Positions 4,241 through 14,209 of a stretch of DNA of 21,425 nt are shown here, piece by piece. Made by a program: the position numbers and the translations under genes. The first letter of the stretch is position 1. Every line of letters starts with the position of its first letter. The stretch is from a virus (taxonomy: Duplodnaviria > Heunggongvirae > Uroviricota > Caudoviricetes), in the IMG/VR virus record IMGVR_UViG_2802429219_000008, one strand, 5' to 3'. The notes beneath the pieces are model-generated. The model was not told where the DNA came from. It did not search any database and saw only the letters and a list, made by a program, of their open reading frames with translations.

Positions 4241-4297
4241 AAAACGGCGGCAGAGCAGTCACGGAGTAAAACTGATACCGCCAAACGTCACCAGAAA
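4241..4297 (-). ncRNA. dicF: DicF small regulatory RNA (ftsZ-targeting sRNA) with intrinsic terminator
   Basis: Minus strand reads TTTCTGGTGACGTTTGGCGGTATCAGTTTTACTCCGTGACTGCTCTGCCGCC followed by GTTTTTAAA: the DicF sequence as I recall it, ending in a GC-rich hairpin (GGCGG...CCGCC) plus U-run. Located between the ydfABC-like genes and dicB as in Qin. Confidence 0.75.
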
Positions 4298-9039: not shown

Positions 9040-9308
9040 TGGTGCAACTTCATCATCAATGAAATGCAGGCAGATGTGCACATGCTACTTAAAGGACAAA
9101 ATGTTTTGCGGGAAAAGGGAAGTTAAGTAGAATTGCTGCGGGTGCTTGAGGCTATCTGCCTCGGGCATGAACACCAAAGGCAGATAGAGAAAAGCCCCAG
9201 TTAACATTACGCGTCCTGCAAGACGCTTAACATTAATCTGAGGCCAATTTCATGCTAGACACATGTAGGTTAGCCTCTTACGTGCCGGAAGGCAAGGAGA
9301 AGCAGGCT

Positions 9309-9464
9309 ATGAAGCAGCAAAAGGCGATGTTAATCGCCCTGATCGTCATCTGTTTAACCGTCATAGTGACGGCACTGGTAACGAGGAAAGACCTCTGCGA
9401 GGTACGAATCCGAACCGGCCAGACGGAGGTCGCTGTCTTCACAGCTTACGAACCTGAGGAGTAA
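9309..9464 (+). CDS. hokD: Hok-family type I toxin HokD (51 aa); in-frame mok-like extension begins at 9252
   Basis: MKQQKAMLIALIVICLTVIVTALVTRKDLCEVRIRTGQTEVAVFTAYEPEE is recognised as Hok/Gef family. The 70-aa ORF 9252..9464 (MLDTCRLASYVPEGKEKQA + Hok) parallels MokC/HokC. Upstream leader holds a 9-bp inverted repeat (ctatctgcc / ggcagatag). Confidence 0.85.
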   Translation: MKQQKAMLIALIVICLTVIVTALVTRKDLCEVRIRTGQTEVAVFTAYEPEE

Positions 9465-9532
9465 GAGACCCGGCGAGGGAGAAATCCCTCGCCACCTCTG
9501 ATGTGGCAGGCATCCTCAACGCACCCGCACTT

Positions 9533-9564
9533 AACCCGCTTCGGCGGGTTTTTGTTTTTATTTT
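9533..9564 (+). terminator. Rho-independent terminator downstream of hokD
   Basis: CCCGC-TTCG-GCGGG hairpin followed by TTTTTGTTTTTATTTT. A second perfect 9-bp stem with GAAA loop (GGCGAGGGA gaaa TCCCTCGCC, 9472-9493) lies just 3' of the hokD stop. Confidence 0.6.
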
Positions 9565-9680
9565 CAACGCGTTTGAAGTTCTGGACGGTGCCGGAATAGA
9601 ATCAAAAATACTTAAGTAGCGCGCAGGGATAAGAGGGATGGTCCCTTAAAGGGGAGAGCTAATTATCCGGAAGGATTCTG

Positions 9681-9932
9681 ATGATGAACATCGAAGAACT
9701 GCGTAAAATTTTTTGTGAAGATGGCCTCTATGCTGTGTGCGTTGAAAATGGAAATCTTGTTAGTCATTACCGCATTATGTGTTTGCGAAAGAATGGGGCT
9801 GCGTTAATTAATTTTGTGGATGGTCGAGTGACAGACGGATTTATCTTGCGCGAAGGTGAGTTTGTCACTTCATTACAGGCACTGAAAGAGATCGGAATAA
9901 AAGCAGGCTTTTCAGCTTTTGCAGAAGAATAA
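9681..9932 (+). CDS. rem: Rem-like small protein (83 aa)
   Basis: ORF track 9681..9932(+). GGAAGGA Shine-Dalgarno. Recalled as the Qin rem product; position between hokD and ydfU matches Qin. Confidence 0.6.
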   Translation: MMNIEELRKIFCEDGLYAVCVENGNLVSHYRIMCLRKNGAALINFVDGRVTDGFILREGEFVTSLQALKEIGIKAGFSAFAEE

Positions 9933-9998
9933 ACTCATCTACAATCTTGCGCGGGGCTGAACTCCCGCTGAGTAACACCGTGCCACCGGAGAAAACCG

Positions 9999-10277
9999 AT
10001 GGCACGCAACGTAAAATATTACAATTCTGATAATTCGCCCGTTCTTGCCTGCACGCACGAGCGGTATTCTCACGCATTCAAGTCTGAATGGTTCCAGCAC
10101 CCTCCATGCACTGAAGAGCAGGCTGAATGGATAATTCAGTGTTACCGCAGGCGCGGATACGAGGTTAAGAAAGCCCTTAGTCTCGACTACCGTCACTGGA
10201 TAATCTCAGTCAGATTGCCTTACTCCGAACGCCCACCGCGTCCGTCCCGTACATTCCAGCAACGCATCTGGAGGTAA
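9999..10277 (+). CDS. hypothetical protein (92 aa), translationally coupled to the ydfU-like gene
   Basis: ORF track 9999..10277(+). GGAG 7 nt upstream of ATG. Its stop (10275-10277) is 1 nt before the ydfU-like GTG start. Protein-like composition. Confidence 0.45.
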   Translation: MARNVKYYNSDNSPVLACTHERYSHAFKSEWFQHPPCTEEQAEWIIQCYRRRGYEVKKALSLDYRHWIISVRLPYSERPPRPSRTFQQRIWR

Positions 10278-10278
10278 C

Positions 10279-11328
10279 GTGCGGGTATTACTTCGACCTG
10301 TTCTGGTACCGGAACTCGGGCTGGTGGTCGTTAAGCCGGGCCGTGAATCCATGCCGGTATTCCACAATACCCGGGTACTGGTGGAGCCGGAACCGAAAAG
10401 CATGCGTAATCTGCCGTCCGGGGTCGTTCCTGCCGTTCGCCAGCCGCTGGTGGAAGACAAAACATTGCTGCCGTTTTTCAGTAACGCACGGGTAATTCGT
10501 GCTGCTGGTGGTGCTGGTGCATTGTCTGACTGGCTGTTGCGCCATATTAAATCCTGCCAGTGGCCACACGGCGATTATCATCACAGCGAAACCGTTATTC
10601 ACCGTTATGGTACCGGCGCAATGGTGTTGTGCTGGCACTGCGACAACCAGCTGCGTGACCAGACATCCGAATCACTCGAGCAACTTGCTCATCAAAACCT
10701 GTCAGCATGGATGATTGACGTCATCGGTCACGCAATAAGCGGTACGCAGGAGCGTGAATTATCTCTGGCTGAATTATCCTGGTGGGCGGTCCGCAATCAG
10801 GTGGCGGACGCGCTACCGGAAGCGGTATTACGTCGCTCGCTGGGATTACCAGCGGAAAAAAACTGCTCGGTGTACCGCGAAAGCGACATCGTACCGGGAG
10901 AGCAGACCGCCACCAGCATATTGAAACAGCGCACAAAAAATCTTGCACCGTTGCCTCACGCCCACCAGCAACAAAACCCATCACAGGAAAAGACGGTGGT
11001 AAGCATCACCGTTGATCCAGAGTCTCCGGAATCTTTCATGAAGCTGCCTAAACGTCACCGTTGGGTTAAGGAGAAATACACACGCTGGGTTAAGACACAG
11101 CCGTGTGCTTGCTGCGGTATGCCAGCCGACGATCCGCATCATCTGATTGGTCACGGGCAGGGCGGAATGGGAACCAAAGCACATGATCTCTTTGTGTTGC
11201 CTTTGTGCAGAAAGCATCACGACGAGCTGCATGCGAATACCGTGGCATTTGAAGAGAAGTATGGCTCCCAGCTGGAGCTGATATTTCGTTTTATCGATCG
11301 TGCGCTGGCAATAGGCGTACTGGCGTAA
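10279..11328 (+). CDS. ydfU: YdfU-like protein (DUF968; C-terminal Cys/His HNH-like motif)
   Basis: ORF track 10279..11328(+), 349 aa, GTG start after GGAGG. C-terminal PCACCGMPADDPHHLIGHGQGG...LPLCRKHHDELH motif. Sits immediately upstream of Q as in Qin. Confidence 0.75.
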   Translation: MRVLLRPVLVPELGLVVVKPGRESMPVFHNTRVLVEPEPKSMRNLPSGVVPAVRQPLVEDKTLLPFFSNARVIRAAGGAGALSDWLLRHIKSCQWPHGDYHHSETVIHRYGTGAMVLCWHCDNQLRDQTSESLEQLAHQNLSAWMIDVIGHAISGTQERELSLAELSWWAVRNQVADALPEAVLRRSLGLPAEKNCSVYRESDIVPGEQTATSILKQRTKNLAPLPHAHQQQNPSQEKTVVSITVDPESPESFMKLPKRHRWVKEKYTRWVKTQPCACCGMPADDPHHLIGHGQGGMGTKAHDLFVLPLCRKHHDELHANTVAFEEKYGSQLELIFRFIDRALAIGVLA

Positions 11329-11341
11329 GTGGAGAACGAGC

Positions 11342-12094
11342 ATGAACCTTGAAGCTTTACCAAAATATTACTCCCCAAAATCTCCAAAATTGAGTGATGA
11401 CGCACCGGCGACAGGCTCGGGTGGTTTAACAATAACAGATGTGATGGCTGCGCAGGGGATGGTGCAGTCGAAAGCTCCGCTTGGTTTTGCCTTATTCCTG
11501 GCAAAAGTTGGTGTTCAGGATCCTCAGTTTGCGATTGAAGGTCTGCTCAATTACGCGATGGCAATGGATAATCCGACATTGAACAAATTGAGTGAAGAAA
11601 TCCGGTTACAGATCATCCCTTACCTTGTGAATTTTGCCTTTGCTGATTATTCCAGGTCTGCGGCAAGTAAGGCTCGCTGTGAGTATTGTGCTGGTACTGG
11701 ATTTCATAATGTATTGCGCGAAGTGGTGAAACACTCCAGAAGTGGGGAATCTGTTATCAAGGAAGAGTGGGTGAAGGAACTATGTCAGCATTGCCATGGT
11801 AAGGGAGAAGTCAGCACAGCGTGCAGAGGGTGTAAGGGGAAAGGTATTGTCCTGGATGAAAAAAGAACCCGGCTTCATAGCACGCCTGTTTATAAGGTTT
11901 GTGGGCGTTGCAATGGAAACCGGTTTAGTCGTTTACCAACGACACTGGCGCGGTGTCATGTCCAGAAGCTGGTACCAGACCTGACGGATTATCAGTGGTA
12001 CAAAGGATATGCAGATGTCATTGATAAACTGGTTACAAAGTGCTGGCAGGAAGAAGCATATGCTGAGGTGCAATTAAGAAAAGTGACGAGATAA
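11342..12094 (+). CDS. quuQ: late-gene antiterminator Q (phage 82/21-type)
   Basis: ORF track 11342..12094(+), 250 aa. GGAG Shine-Dalgarno. Zinc-finger motifs (CEYCAGTG...CQHCHGKG...CRGCKGKG...CGRCNG). Recognised as the QuuQ-type antiterminator. Confidence 0.85.
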   Translation: MNLEALPKYYSPKSPKLSDDAPATGSGGLTITDVMAAQGMVQSKAPLGFALFLAKVGVQDPQFAIEGLLNYAMAMDNPTLNKLSEEIRLQIIPYLVNFAFADYSRSAASKARCEYCAGTGFHNVLREVVKHSRSGESVIKEEWVKELCQHCHGKGEVSTACRGCKGKGIVLDEKRTRLHSTPVYKVCGRCNGNRFSRLPTTLARCHVQKLVPDLTDYQWYKGYADVIDKLVTKCWQEEAYAEVQLRKVTR

Positions 12095-12855
12095 ATGATT
12101 TTCACCGAACGATGGCGACATAACGATTGTATTTTCTAAGGAAACGTGCAAAGAGTTTTCCAATGATGAGCCTTATATGCATACCGGTGGAAAATATCAA
12201 TAAGCCGCGCAGAGTGGTTTTTTTGTGGACATAAACTTTGTGCAGAACGGTAACCATTATGGTTGCCGTGAATGCAGTTTTTTTACATTGCTGGCTTTTT
12301 TAGATTTGTGTTAGTTATTGATATTAACAAGAAGGGGAAAAGACATGCTAAAACGGCAGGATATGAAGGAAACGGTTATGCGTGAATGTTCCAGTGTGAT
12401 TAACCATATCATCTGGAGAAGCCATCCTGATGCAGGGAAGAGGTAACAGTAACGCGCATCAATCAGGCTGCAAATAAATGGCTTACGCCGGAAATCTGGC
12501 TATCGATGTATTACCGGTTTGTTACCCATGAAGAAAATTAAGGTGATAACGAAACTGATTTTATTGGTGTCTTGTCAGAGTGTTGCGATGAAACTTGTGT
12601 TGGCAGTGCAGGGAAAACAGTAGGATGAAAATTATAAATTGCTTTAAATGAGCTTGATTTTCCTCATGTTATGAGATATTTGTCTTATATTGCTGGTTAA
12701 TTATGAAAATTTTTGTAAATCTACAGCAATAAAATCCATATTAATTAAAGCACTAGATGCGTTTCTGATTTGTGCATGAAACATACATATCATAATGATT
12801 AATTGCATCTATAATTACAGATACAGCATTGTGCTGTTAAAAAACTGGAGTCCCC

Positions 12856-12963
12856 ATGAATACATTATATGTAAGTGATTCAAATGAAAAATCTCATGAC
12901 AGGAATAAAAACAATGAGGATGGTAAGGGTAAGGATAATAAAAAAGACAACCGGAAAGAGTAA
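12856..12963 (+). CDS. micro-ORF (35 aa, K/N/D-rich)
   Basis: Not in the ORF track (too short). ATG at 12856 with GGAG 5 nt upstream; perfect TATAAT at 12810-12815. MNTLYVSDSNEKSHDRNKNNEDGKGKDNKKDNRKE. Speculative. Confidence 0.25.
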   Translation: MNTLYVSDSNEKSHDRNKNNEDGKGKDNKKDNRKE

Positions 12964-12998
12964 ATAATCTTTCCTGCATAAAAATACTAGGGTGGAAT

Positions 12999-13118
12999 AT
13001 GTCAGAACATCCAGATTTTGATGACCGTAAGCCTGATGATGAGCCCGTTGAGCGTCCTGATGAGGGGCAACCATTGAACCCTTTTTCACCGGATGATAAA
13101 AGAGATCCTATTATTTAG
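12999..13118 (+). CDS. micro-ORF (39 aa, acidic/Pro-rich)
   Basis: Not in the ORF track. ATG at 12999 after AGGGTGG. MSEHPDFDDRKPDDEPVERPDEGQPLNPFSPDDKRDPII. Ends 50 nt before a strong intrinsic terminator. Speculative. Confidence 0.25.
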   Translation: MSEHPDFDDRKPDDEPVERPDEGQPLNPFSPDDKRDPII

Positions 13119-13170
13119 ATATAGCAGAATATAGCCGTTTAAAGTAGGTTGTGTTTTGTTGCTATCCTTA

Positions 13171-13199
13171 AACCACCTCCACAGGAGGTGGTTTTTTAC
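13171..13199 (+). terminator. Rho-independent terminator
   Basis: Perfect 10-bp stem AACCACCTCC / GGAGGTGGTT with ACA loop followed by TTTTTT on the + strand. Confidence 0.65.
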
Positions 13200-13254
13200 T
13201 AATGGAACATTAATTGGCAGATGTGATTGTGTACGACTTATGGGAGGCTTAAGA

Positions 13255-13440
13255 TTATTTTCTGCCAATAATAAAACCAAGCGTTAACCCTATGCTTAGA
13301 GCAACCACCACGCTAGTCAGTGGATAATTTCTAAATTTATCTTTAACGTTTTCTTTGCCTCCCTGCAAAGCATCGTCAGCACATGATGCATATTTTTTGA
13401 CAGTATTAACTATTTCGTTTTCAGATTGATTTGAAGTCAT
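13255..13440 (-). CDS. short DUF883-like (ElaB/YqjD/YgaM-type) tail-anchored membrane protein (61 aa)
   Basis: Internal ATG (13438-13440) of ORF 13255..13539(-) with AGGA 9 nt upstream. MTSNQSENEIVNTVKKYASCADDALQGGKENVKDKFRNYPLTSVVVALSIGLTLGFIIGRK; the C-terminus resembles the DUF883 membrane anchor. AT-rich rare codons (ATA, AGA). Confidence 0.45.
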   Translation of the reverse strand: MTSNQSENEIVNTVKKYASCADDALQGGKENVKDKFRNYPLTSVVVALSIGLTLGFIIGRK

Positions 13441-13893
13441 GTTTGAAGTCCTGATGTTAAGTGGCTTTTTAATTATAGCAGATATGCTTTCAATGATAGG
13501 GCGGAGAGTTGTTATTGAGGTGATACTATGACCACTCAATCAACATTACATAAAATGACGTTTACTCCTGTTTGGCACAGTAGCAGAATTTTGCTTCTGC
13601 TACTGAAGTCGCTTTAGCACTAGAATATGCAGATGGATAAAGCAGTTCAGCGTATGTACTGCGTCATGCATATCGGTCTTGCAGATATGACGAGAAGGGG
13701 AGACAAGGTGTGTGTAATGTAGAAGTCTTTAAAGTGCTGTCTGGGATAACTCTATGCTGAAGTGCAATTGATAAAAGTAACACGATAAAGGTTTTTCAAT
13801 GAAGATGGTAACGTGATGCTTGCATTTTTCAAAAAATATGGATAAAATTTTTTCAACGATGGGCTTTGTATACCCGACGTTAAGAAAAAGTAG

Positions 13894-13920
13894 AAAACCC
13901 GCTGATGAGCGGGTTTTGTG
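13894..13920. terminator. bidirectional intrinsic terminator-like hairpin
   Basis: AAAACCCGCT-GATG-AGCGGGTTTT, with T-rich sequence on both strands after the stem. Confidence 0.5.
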
Positions 13921-14209
13921 CTTTAAATGGGGCAATGGTAATGTTGAATCTCATCCCGGGACTCATGTCTGTTAACTTATTATTTAGCTGGTGACTTGGT
14001 TATTTGCCTGATGTTTAAAATGTTTTCTTCCAGTACAATGTCCCTAAACACAATGAGTCTGCTTATTATATTATTAGCAGAGCTATTACGGCCAAAGTAC
14101 AGCATAAGCTTTTAAAGCCAATCAACCAGTCATCAAGACAGACGGGGTTATTCATAAAAACTCTCCATGTGTGATCCGATGGGGCCTGAAATTAAAGCTT
14201 TAATATAGC

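Follow-up and report, generated by a model that had tools for sequence, protein, structure and literature searches.

Which of the sequences between the antiterminator gene Q and the late promoter of a lambdoid prophage still work, and which are debris, is the question raised by a stretch of 21,425 nucleotides (nt) of viral DNA (IMG/VR virus record IMGVR_UViG_2802429219_000008), called the window below, which is a Qin-like lambdoid prophage of Escherichia coli. The original prediction, made for positions 12095-13540, described an AT-rich cargo island downstream of Q, with several short open reading frames (ORFs) led by ribosome-binding sites, a strong terminator and a convergent DUF883-like tail-anchored protein. 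The analysis reported here points to a recombination scar (probability about 0.72), which would consist mostly of broken phage genes and carry one working passenger gene, encoding a protein of 61 amino acid residues (61 aa) on the minus strand. Over half of the island can be traced to ordinary lambdoid genes and signals that are now debris. The island combines a mosaic joint with a moron (an accessory unit of promoter, gene and terminator), both of known kinds, and is largely ordinary; its notable parts are the uncharacterised 61-aa family and a split Q cassette. Every coordinate given earlier for Q, the holin gene, the ORFs, the TATAAT hexamer and the hairpin was confirmed in the sequence, and the AT-richness was borne out, the island having a GC content of 37% against 46% for the Q gene and 44% for the window.

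Limits of the island and the two late-promoter cassettes

When the Qin prophage of strain K-12 was aligned to the window by blastn, it matched positions 9295-12178 and again from 13731 on, the two blocks overlapping by 141 base pairs (bp) in K-12 coordinates; therefore, the window has 1,694 extra bases between direct repeats. The repeat copies (repeat family D1) are spaced 1694 apart, and a three-way alignment revealed that K-12 resembles the first copy inside Q and the second copy downstream of Q. The earlier description of the region as accessory DNA without a counterpart in related prophages was upheld, given that K-12 Qin lacks an equivalent. Among 5,426 complete E. coli genomes, the island was found in 40, each time at an identity of at least 99%, and an uninterrupted junction of Q and the late promoter pR' was found in 2,135. 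As is characteristic of morons, the extra DNA (present in 40 genomes, absent from 2,135) lies between genes that are contiguous in related phages. Two isolated phages, HannyBb and PhiR63_1, also carry the island, which is therefore compatible with lytic growth.

Four further IMG/VR contigs (L033-L036) have an island whose identity to that of the window is 98.8% or more, whereas their final 100 nt of Q and their pR' region diverge from the window by 13-14%. A near-identical island within such diverged flanks sets the limits of the cassette at about 12098 and about 13808, and it indicates that the island has been exchanged between Qin-like backbones, probably by recombination in the flanking repeats. 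Diverged backbones share this repeat-flanked island in almost the same form.

The layout of the Q-lambda cassette (the family name follows the same source) has been described as a promoter, a Q-binding element, a sigma-dependent pause element and a terminator (PMC9388147). Downstream of Q, a 52-nt block composed of TTGCAT, a 17-nt spacer, TAA(A/G)AT and then AACGAT GGGC was found to be identical at 49-52 of its 52 positions among K-12, SfV, CX04, 720R4 and the second of two copies in the window (copy 2); beyond the block, the sequences differ. Copy 2 is 52/52 identical to K-12 and 49-50/52 identical to SfV, CX04 and 720R4, and it contains the whole cassette, namely the -35 element, the Q-binding spacer, the -10 element, the pause element and the terminator. 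The copy next to Q (copy 1) is identical to the conserved block at only 34-36 of 52 positions (16-18 substitutions). Its spacer, where the binding element of the Q-lambda family lies, is changed at 8 of 17 positions, and AAAGAG stands at the -10 position instead of TAAGAT or TAAAAT. No close relative of copy 1 was found outside the island in the 5,426 genomes or in 50,697 phage records, the best match reaching 73%. The terminator region that follows copy 1 is homologous to the annotated terminator region of SfV.

From these comparisons, it is inferred that late transcription uses copy 2 as its promoter and that copy 1 is a duplicate in decay. With copy 2 as the working pR', the island sits between Q and pR', outside the late operon, and a position inside that operon is not supported: the conserved promoter (-35 at 13820, -10 at 13843) follows the island. 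Even in phages isolated as free particles (HannyBb and PhiR63_1), 1.7 kb of debris would come between the Q gene and the late promoter conserved for it.

It is unlikely that copy 1 is itself a working, or a second working, Q-dependent late promoter, in which case the whole island would lie in a Q-antiterminated transcript. Copy 1 does stand directly after Q, the usual site of the cassette (PMC9388147), and it retains TTG at -35, a possible -10 element AAGAGT with an 18-nt spacer, two terminators and AATGAT, which some relatives naturally have as their pause element. However, its 16-18 substitutions fall within a block that is otherwise 94-100% conserved among phages whose Q proteins are 93-97% identical; they include the spacer changes in the binding region and the AAAGAG at the canonical -10. 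Moreover, an intact canonical cassette is present 1.7 kb downstream, and a cassette of the copy 1 type was never found as the sole cassette.

An RNA as the useful product of the island, either leader transcripts of copy 1 (like lambda 6S RNA and StxS) or an antisense RNA at the convergent terminator described below, is given very little credence. The promoter-like block of copy 1 and its terminator would delimit a transcript of about 60-120 nt, and transcription would converge on a shared hairpin; yet the copy 1 promoter is degenerate, no Rfam family was matched at the gathering threshold within the island, and the search at E<1 over 12000-14100 returned just two chance-level matches. As the island copies are at least 98.8% identical, no covariation signal is obtainable from them.

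In a separate observation, the pR' spacer of the cryptic prophage of O121 strain RM8352 (L001), which is disrupted by insertion sequences, was found to have an extra A (18 nt), and its -10 element reads TAAAGT. These changes suggest decay of pR' after the prophage became defective.

Table 1. Features of the island and its surroundings, in window coordinates
Feature	Position	Strand	Description
Antiterminator Q gene	11342-12094	+	250 aa; Q-lambda family PF03589; Pfam Antiterm E=4e-50
Direct repeat, copy 1	12037-12235		3' end of Q and region just downstream of Q
Island	12098-13808		1,694 bp more than in K-12 Qin; imperfect direct repeats at both ends
Late-promoter block, copy 1	12127-12178	+	degenerate duplicate
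Copy 1 elements	12127-12132; 12150-12155; 12162-12167	+	-35 TTGTAT; "-10" AAAGAG; pause-like AATGAT
Copy 1, first terminator	12202-12227	+	predicted weak, -8.5 kcal/mol
Copy 1, second terminator	12241-12276, with U7 12278-12284	+	predicted strong; interrupted 14-bp hairpin, -23.9 kcal/mol
33-aa micro-ORF	12345-12446	+	opening of an SfV-orf47-like gene (phrog_331), from its ribosome-binding site through codon 10, fused to a methyltransferase fragment; pseudogene stub
ren pseudogene	12446-12623	+	last two thirds; two frames, internal stop
AT-rich spacer	12625-13169	+	545 bp; 32.5% GC; no sign of coding
TATAAT	12810-12815	+	no usable -35 element or TGn extension
35-aa ORF	12856-12963	+	in spacer; GGAG 5 nt before ATG
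39-aa ORF	12999-13118	+	in spacer; local GC 44%
Bidirectional intrinsic terminator	13170-13200	both	predicted; hairpin 13170-13194, 11-bp stem, 3-nt loop, U6 tail
61-aa gene	13255-13440	-	small membrane protein, predicted tail-anchored; phrog_11629; RefSeq WP_000203370.1
Extended -10 promoter element	13480-13472	-	putative, for the 61-aa gene; TGCTATAAT
rha-family 5' remnant	13516-13710	+	about 60 codons (residues 1-61); at least 2 frameshifts
29-aa micro-ORF	13528-13617	+	opening frame of the rha remnant, ahead of its first frameshift
Direct repeat, copy 2	13731-13925		77%-identical Q 3' remnant and similar downstream region
Diverged second Q gene, 3' remnant	13731-13779	+	last ~16 codons and stop
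Late cassette (pR'), copy 2	13820-13925	+	conserved, putatively Q-dependent; beyond the stretch covered by the original prediction
Copy 2 promoter elements	13820-13825; 13843-13848	+	-35 TTGCAT; -10 TAAAAT; 17-nt spacer
Copy 2 pause element and terminator	13855-13860; 13894-13917	+	sigma-dependent pause element AACGAT, immediately beyond the start site; terminator -23.9 kcal/mol
Holin gene	15691-15906		ORF call

Gene remnants and short ORFs in the island

The statement that nothing in the region fits core phage functions did not hold, given that a pR'/terminator cassette and parts of an orf47-like gene, a DNA adenine methyltransferase gene, ren, rha and the 3' end of Q were all found in it. 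Window positions 12111-12375 are 72-77% identical to the region that follows Q in SfV, CX04, 720R4, mEp460 and Stx2c phages, where Q is followed in turn by a terminator, the gene of a 64-67-aa protein (phrog_331), a DNA adenine methyltransferase gene and the holin gene. The 33-aa micro-ORF starts exactly at the start of the orf47-like gene (MLKRQDMKET, compared with MLKQQDMTET in SfV orf47) and runs into a methyltransferase remnant of about 23 codons (~70 nt), which corresponds to about residues 90-114 of the enzyme (ETVMRECSSVINHIIW compared with EIMMRERFNVLNHIIW; 40/55 nt identical). The left third of the island, judged from this order of homologies, is a collapsed late leader of the SfV type.

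The right two thirds contain remnants of a different region. The ren remnant spans approximately residues 29-93; it is 73-74% identical to annotated ren genes (blastn), and in tblastn it was matched, in two frames, by the Ren proteins of PhiR26_1 (E=6e-8) and DLP12 (E=1.5e-4). In L033-L035 it has an extra 32-nt deletion. At the DNA level, the rha remnant is 79% identical to the beginning of the PhiR26_1 gene annotated as "Rha protein", the GAGGTGATACTATG start region included (tblastn E=1e-8). For the Q remnant, 77% identity to 12037-12109 was obtained, and tblastn paired KCCLG*LYAEVQLIKVTR* with KCWQEEAYAEVQLRKVTR*. None of the ren, rha and methyltransferase remnants has an intact full-length frame. 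The intact order in PhiR26_1 is ren, PD-lambda-1 (minus strand), rha, Q and pR', and the remnants are collinear with it; therefore, the right two thirds would represent a collapsed ren-to-Q early region.

PhiR26_1 (L055; 3691-5193 and 9617-10714) itself has antisense cargo in both of the slots that matter here: PD-lambda-1 in the one flanked by ren and rha, and an OmpD porin gene in the one flanked by Q and the holin gene. A weak Ren-like alignment of a translation across 13833-13982 of the window (32% over 50 aa, from a tiny database) was rejected as probably a chance match, because the DNA there is constrained as promoter and terminator.

The 33-aa and 29-aa micro-ORFs had been proposed as cargo partly for their good ribosome-binding sites. 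They have such sites because both are the 5' ends of dead genes, that is, stubs of the orf47-like/methyltransferase and rha genes. For annotation, a short ORF with a good ribosome-binding site at a phage mosaic joint will often be the opening of a dead gene. Over 12095-13730, six ATG ORFs of at least 29 aa led by a Shine-Dalgarno sequence were counted on both strands, compared with 0.81 in shuffled sequences, and none of 500 shuffles reached six; half of the six are accounted for by the two gene stubs and the 61-aa gene. Within the central AT-rich part, the single plus-strand ORF of this kind was equalled in 70 of 500 shuffles (14%). The Shine-Dalgarno-led micro-ORFs of the original prediction are thus present and enriched over shuffles, but two are gene stubs and the other two, the 35-aa and 39-aa ORFs, are unsupported.

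The spacer that contains these two ORFs has no DNA homologue outside the island copies. For the 39-aa ORF, no relative below 97% identity was found in 5.8 billion proteins, 50,697 phage records and 72,556 plasmids; the protein search was made with the 39-aa ORF plus one upstream residue and did not include the 35-aa ORF as a protein query, and the phage and plasmid searches, made by tblastn, returned identical copies or nothing. No match was obtained for the micro-ORFs scanned against Pfam, NCBIfam, PHROGs and PADLOC, and the 35-aa and 39-aa ORFs are absent beside diverged copies of the 61-aa gene. Among relatives, three substitutions were observed in the two ORFs, all of them non-synonymous, and both products are of low complexity and predicted to be disordered. 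Conservation of the reading frames in related prophages was the standard that the original prediction had set for itself; without diverged homologues, the two ORFs are unsupported as cargo by that standard, and they are most likely chance ORFs in an AT-rich spacer. The TATAAT hexamer is located as predicted, but it lacks significance, the window containing 11 such hexamers compared with 12.2 expected from shuffles.

It is improbable, therefore, that the plus-strand micro-ORFs, or at least the 35-aa/39-aa pair, form a genuine cargo operon transcribed from the TATAAT at 12810 and ended at 13171-13199. Both ORFs exist and a strong plus-strand terminator lies downstream of them; the GGAG of the 35-aa ORF is well placed before its ATG, the 39-aa ORF has 44% GC compared with 32.5% around it, and both frames are intact in all island copies examined and annotated in both phage records. 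These features are outweighed by the lack of any diverged homologue of the 39-aa ORF and of any DNA relative outside the island or family match for either ORF, by their absence beside diverged 61-aa genes, by a chance-level TATAAT with neither -35 nor TGn, by the 14% of shuffles that match a Shine-Dalgarno-led spacer ORF, and by the wholly non-synonymous substitutions and disordered, low-complexity products.

In the HannyBb record (PP925841.1; L003 4001-5621), eleven plus-strand micro-ORFs are annotated and the 61-aa minus-strand gene is omitted; the PhiR63_1 and RefSeq annotations include the latter.

The 61-aa gene and its terminator

The 61-aa ORF is, on comparative grounds, a genuine conserved gene and would be the sole intact cargo gene of the island. 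A first word-based search with its product returned near-identical copies only, and the homologues were reached by a full HMMER scan: small homologues at 36-50% identity were present among 1.84 billion representatives, a profile search added homologues in Leclercia, Enterobacter and metagenomes, with identities as high as 57%, and IMG/VR contained further copies of the gene at 33-36% and 52-53%. Overall, the homologues are 34-57% identical to the window protein. The hidden Markov model of phrog_11629 matches the protein over its full length (61/61 positions, E=4.8e-47) and a 64-aa homologue (P0012) with E=1.8e-20. The ratio of non-synonymous to synonymous substitution rates (dN/dS) is 0.04 between two homologues and 0.10-0.22 between homologues and the window gene, which reveals purifying selection; the near-identical island copies had too few substitutions to be informative on selection. 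As originally predicted, then, the minus strand encodes a 61-aa protein with a hydrophobic C-terminal anchor, and it has conserved homologues. Three long repetitive proteins from the HMMER scan (P0003, P0006 and P0008) were rejected as repeat or low-complexity matches and are not family members. A literature search for WP_000203370 found nothing.

The start of the gene and its upstream signals were also conserved. The N-termini of the homologues fit the ATG at 13440 and not an upstream TTG, and a Shine-Dalgarno sequence, AGGA, lies 8 nt ahead of this ATG. A -10-like CTATnnT stands equally far from the start codon in four diverged loci (L019 reads TGCTATGAT), and the Shine-Dalgarno motif is likewise conserved upstream of diverged homologues. 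Homologues are antisense to late genes: in Leclercia-type loci they come after the tail-fibre genes, in an Enterobacter prophage the homologue separates the lysis genes from Nu1, and a further site is a prophage remnant adjacent to icd. The homologues repeatedly adjoin a gene for a GnsA/GnsB-family toxin (L019 5555-6249, in an intact lambdoid prophage; L013-L015 5001-6110, in the remnant beside icd), and the two genes may be a co-travelling cargo pair.

The strong terminator predicted next to this gene was borne out: the hairpin found there has an 11-bp stem, a U6 tail and a folding energy of -18.2 kcal/mol. Folding of each strand gave -18.2 kcal/mol for the plus strand (z -4.0) and -17.8 kcal/mol for the minus strand (z -3.4), from which a strong plus-strand and a weaker minus-strand terminator were predicted. 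The stop codon of the 61-aa gene is followed 55 nt later by this hairpin. The GC content of the gene is 35%, compared with 37% for the island and 46% for Q, so that it has both a base composition and a terminator of its own, as morons do. The unit is best explained as a classic moron with a predicted promoter. A 47-nt match to the hairpin and its flanks (13154-13200; 91.5% identical) was also observed in an unrelated island of ECOR29 (L008 2501-2547), where it has a gene for an N-6 DNA methylase on one side and a nucleotidyltransferase/ThiF gene pair on the other.

That the whole island, the 61-aa ORF included, is an inert hitch-hiking spacer is considered very unlikely. Most of the island is demonstrably pseudogenic, close variants carry two non-synonymous changes in the 61-aa ORF, and the island is dispensable, as the K-12-type junction illustrates. 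An inert spacer, however, would not account for a family that has kept its full-length frame at 34-57% identity with a dN/dS of 0.04-0.22, nor for an upstream -10 element and Shine-Dalgarno sequence conserved across several genera and prophage positions.

Several points weigh against the reading of the island as a scar with a single working gene. The sequence alone is consistent both with loss of the island from K-12 and with its gain by the window. Copy 1 could still be a weak promoter (TTGTAT, an 18-nt spacer and AAGAGT, with the critical -11A and -7T kept), and its AATGAT occurs naturally in the functional-looking copy 2 of the relatives L033 and L036. The methyltransferase match is short (16 aa; 40/55 nt). 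The HannyBb and PhiR63_1 records list the 35-aa and 39-aa ORFs as hypothetical proteins, and the absence of homologues is compatible with their being translated. Among the near-identical island copies, the few substitutions in the 61-aa gene include two non-synonymous ones, so that recent constraint on it is not demonstrable, and the structure model of its product is of moderate confidence, with a predicted local distance difference test score (pLDDT) of 66.5.

The label "DUF883-like" was examined in two parts, the C-terminal anchor and the membership of the family. The mean Kyte-Doolittle hydropathy is 2.19 over residues 41-59 of the 61-aa protein and -1.11 over residues 1-39; the structure model contains two helices (4-38 and 40-60). 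The protein is predicted to lack a signal peptide, to be hydrophilic in its N-terminal part and to have its only transmembrane helix at the C-terminus, an arrangement of the DUF883 type. The best Pfam match of the protein is DUF883_C (PF19029), which lies below threshold (12.3 bits compared with a cut-off of 27 bits; E=0.14). It is also the top Pfam match for most of the members tested, with scores of 11.8-17 bits in the homologues where it matches; one homologue (P0015) has no DUF883_C match at E<=0.01. The N-terminal domain of DUF883 (PF05957, gathering score) was matched neither by the 61-aa protein nor by its homologues. In a profile-profile comparison by hhalign with ElaB, YqjD and YgaM, only the C-terminal 29 columns aligned, with a probability of 89.6%; these three sequences, which served as positive controls, were validated by their Pfam and NCBIfam scores (38-53 bits for PF05957). 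The 64-aa homologues are labelled ElaB/YqjD/DUF883 family by NCBI and JGI, and no NCBIfam model that would account for the "ElaB/YqjD" labels was found on them.

The C-terminal anchor alone is thus likely to be homologous to DUF883, and this part of the label stood; membership of the family did not, given the score of 12.3 against 27 bits and the absence of PF05957. "DUF883-like anchor" is a fair description, and "DUF883 member" is not supported. Like ElaB, YqjD and YgaM, the protein has a C-terminal glycine-zipper transmembrane helix with a basic end and a preceding proline, but it is 61 aa long compared with about 101-109 aa and is without PF05957. In a preprint, the ElaB/YqjD/YgaM family is described as binding ribosomes at the membrane and inhibiting translation, and the inhibition by YqjD as dependent on its N-terminus and on dimerization (bioRxiv 10.1101/2024.08.16.608256). 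On that dependence, the activity is therefore not transferable to the 61-aa protein.

Proposed working, related systems and setting

The scheme that follows is drawn, in all of its steps, from sequence features. The island would split a normally contiguous Q cassette, leaving the Q gene 1.7 kb from pR' at 13820-13848. Its left third (a pR'-like block, two terminators, an orf47-like start and a piece of a methyltransferase gene) would derive from an SfV-type late leader, and its right two thirds (a ren remnant, antisense cargo, an rha remnant and a Q 3' remnant) from a ren-to-Q region. In the lysogen, the 61-aa gene would be transcribed leftward, against the rightward transcription of the phage, from its own extended -10 promoter (TGCTATAAT), and the hairpin at 13170-13200 would end and insulate this transcript and also stop rightward leakage from Q. 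The product is expected to enter the inner membrane through its C-terminal glycine-zipper helix (41-59), with about 40 residues, in helical form, remaining on the cytoplasmic side. Upon induction, Q would act at the cassette at 13820-13925, where late transcription would start. The island would add nothing to the lytic programme and could be lost by recombination between the flanking repeats, yielding the K-12-type junction.

As a best guess, the 61-aa protein alters a membrane-associated host process or blocks superinfecting phages. A more specific version is offered only tentatively, as a doubtful proposal: the family (61-95 aa; 64 or 82 aa where the frame is intact) would be a minimal, prophage-borne tail-anchored protein of the ElaB/YqjD type, made constitutively in lysogens as a conversion or superinfection-exclusion factor. 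If true, its role in conversion might be, for example, to tether or silence a cytoplasmic target at the membrane, and the proposal would explain why the gene recurs, in every case antisense to late genes, in at least four different prophage cargo slots (Escherichia, Leclercia, Enterobacter). As an uncharacterised prophage cargo gene, the family is small enough for quick testing.

Among the closest known systems, lambdoid morons, such as bor of lambda, the ompD gene of PhiR26_1 and stx, which lies between Q and S, share several features with the 61-aa unit, which is absent from most related prophages, has a distinct base composition, a promoter-like element and a terminator of its own, and opposes late transcription as bor, PD-lambda-1 and ompD do; unlike them, it lies upstream of the conserved pR', amid second ren-to-Q debris and not in the late operon. 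With respect to the Q-lambda cassette, the window Q belongs to PF03589 and copy 2 is identical to K-12 Qin and near-identical to SfV, whereas the cassette of the window is split by 1.7 kb and has a decayed second copy at the usual position. The SfV-type late leader (Q, pR', tR', the 64-67-aa phrog_331 protein, methyltransferase and holin) is resembled by window 12111-12375 at 72-77% identity, but in the island the small gene is cut short after its first 10 codons and only about 70 nt remain from the methyltransferase gene.

The Q protein of the window shares 93% of its residues with K-12 QuuQ; with the Q proteins of SfV and strain CX04, the identity rises to 97%. The copy of the region in O121 strain RM8352 is 99.8% identical, and the RefSeq names around it are ydfU, ydfT (Q), cspF, cspB, ynfU, essQ, rrrQ and rzpQ. 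Over the whole window, four Rfam matches, all outside the island, reached the gathering score: DicF at 4245-4296 on the minus strand, the sok antitoxin RNA at 9140-9314 on the plus strand, and two plus-strand thermoregulator leaders of the cspA type, at 14562-15001 and 18017-18448, which precede cspB-like and cspI-like genes.

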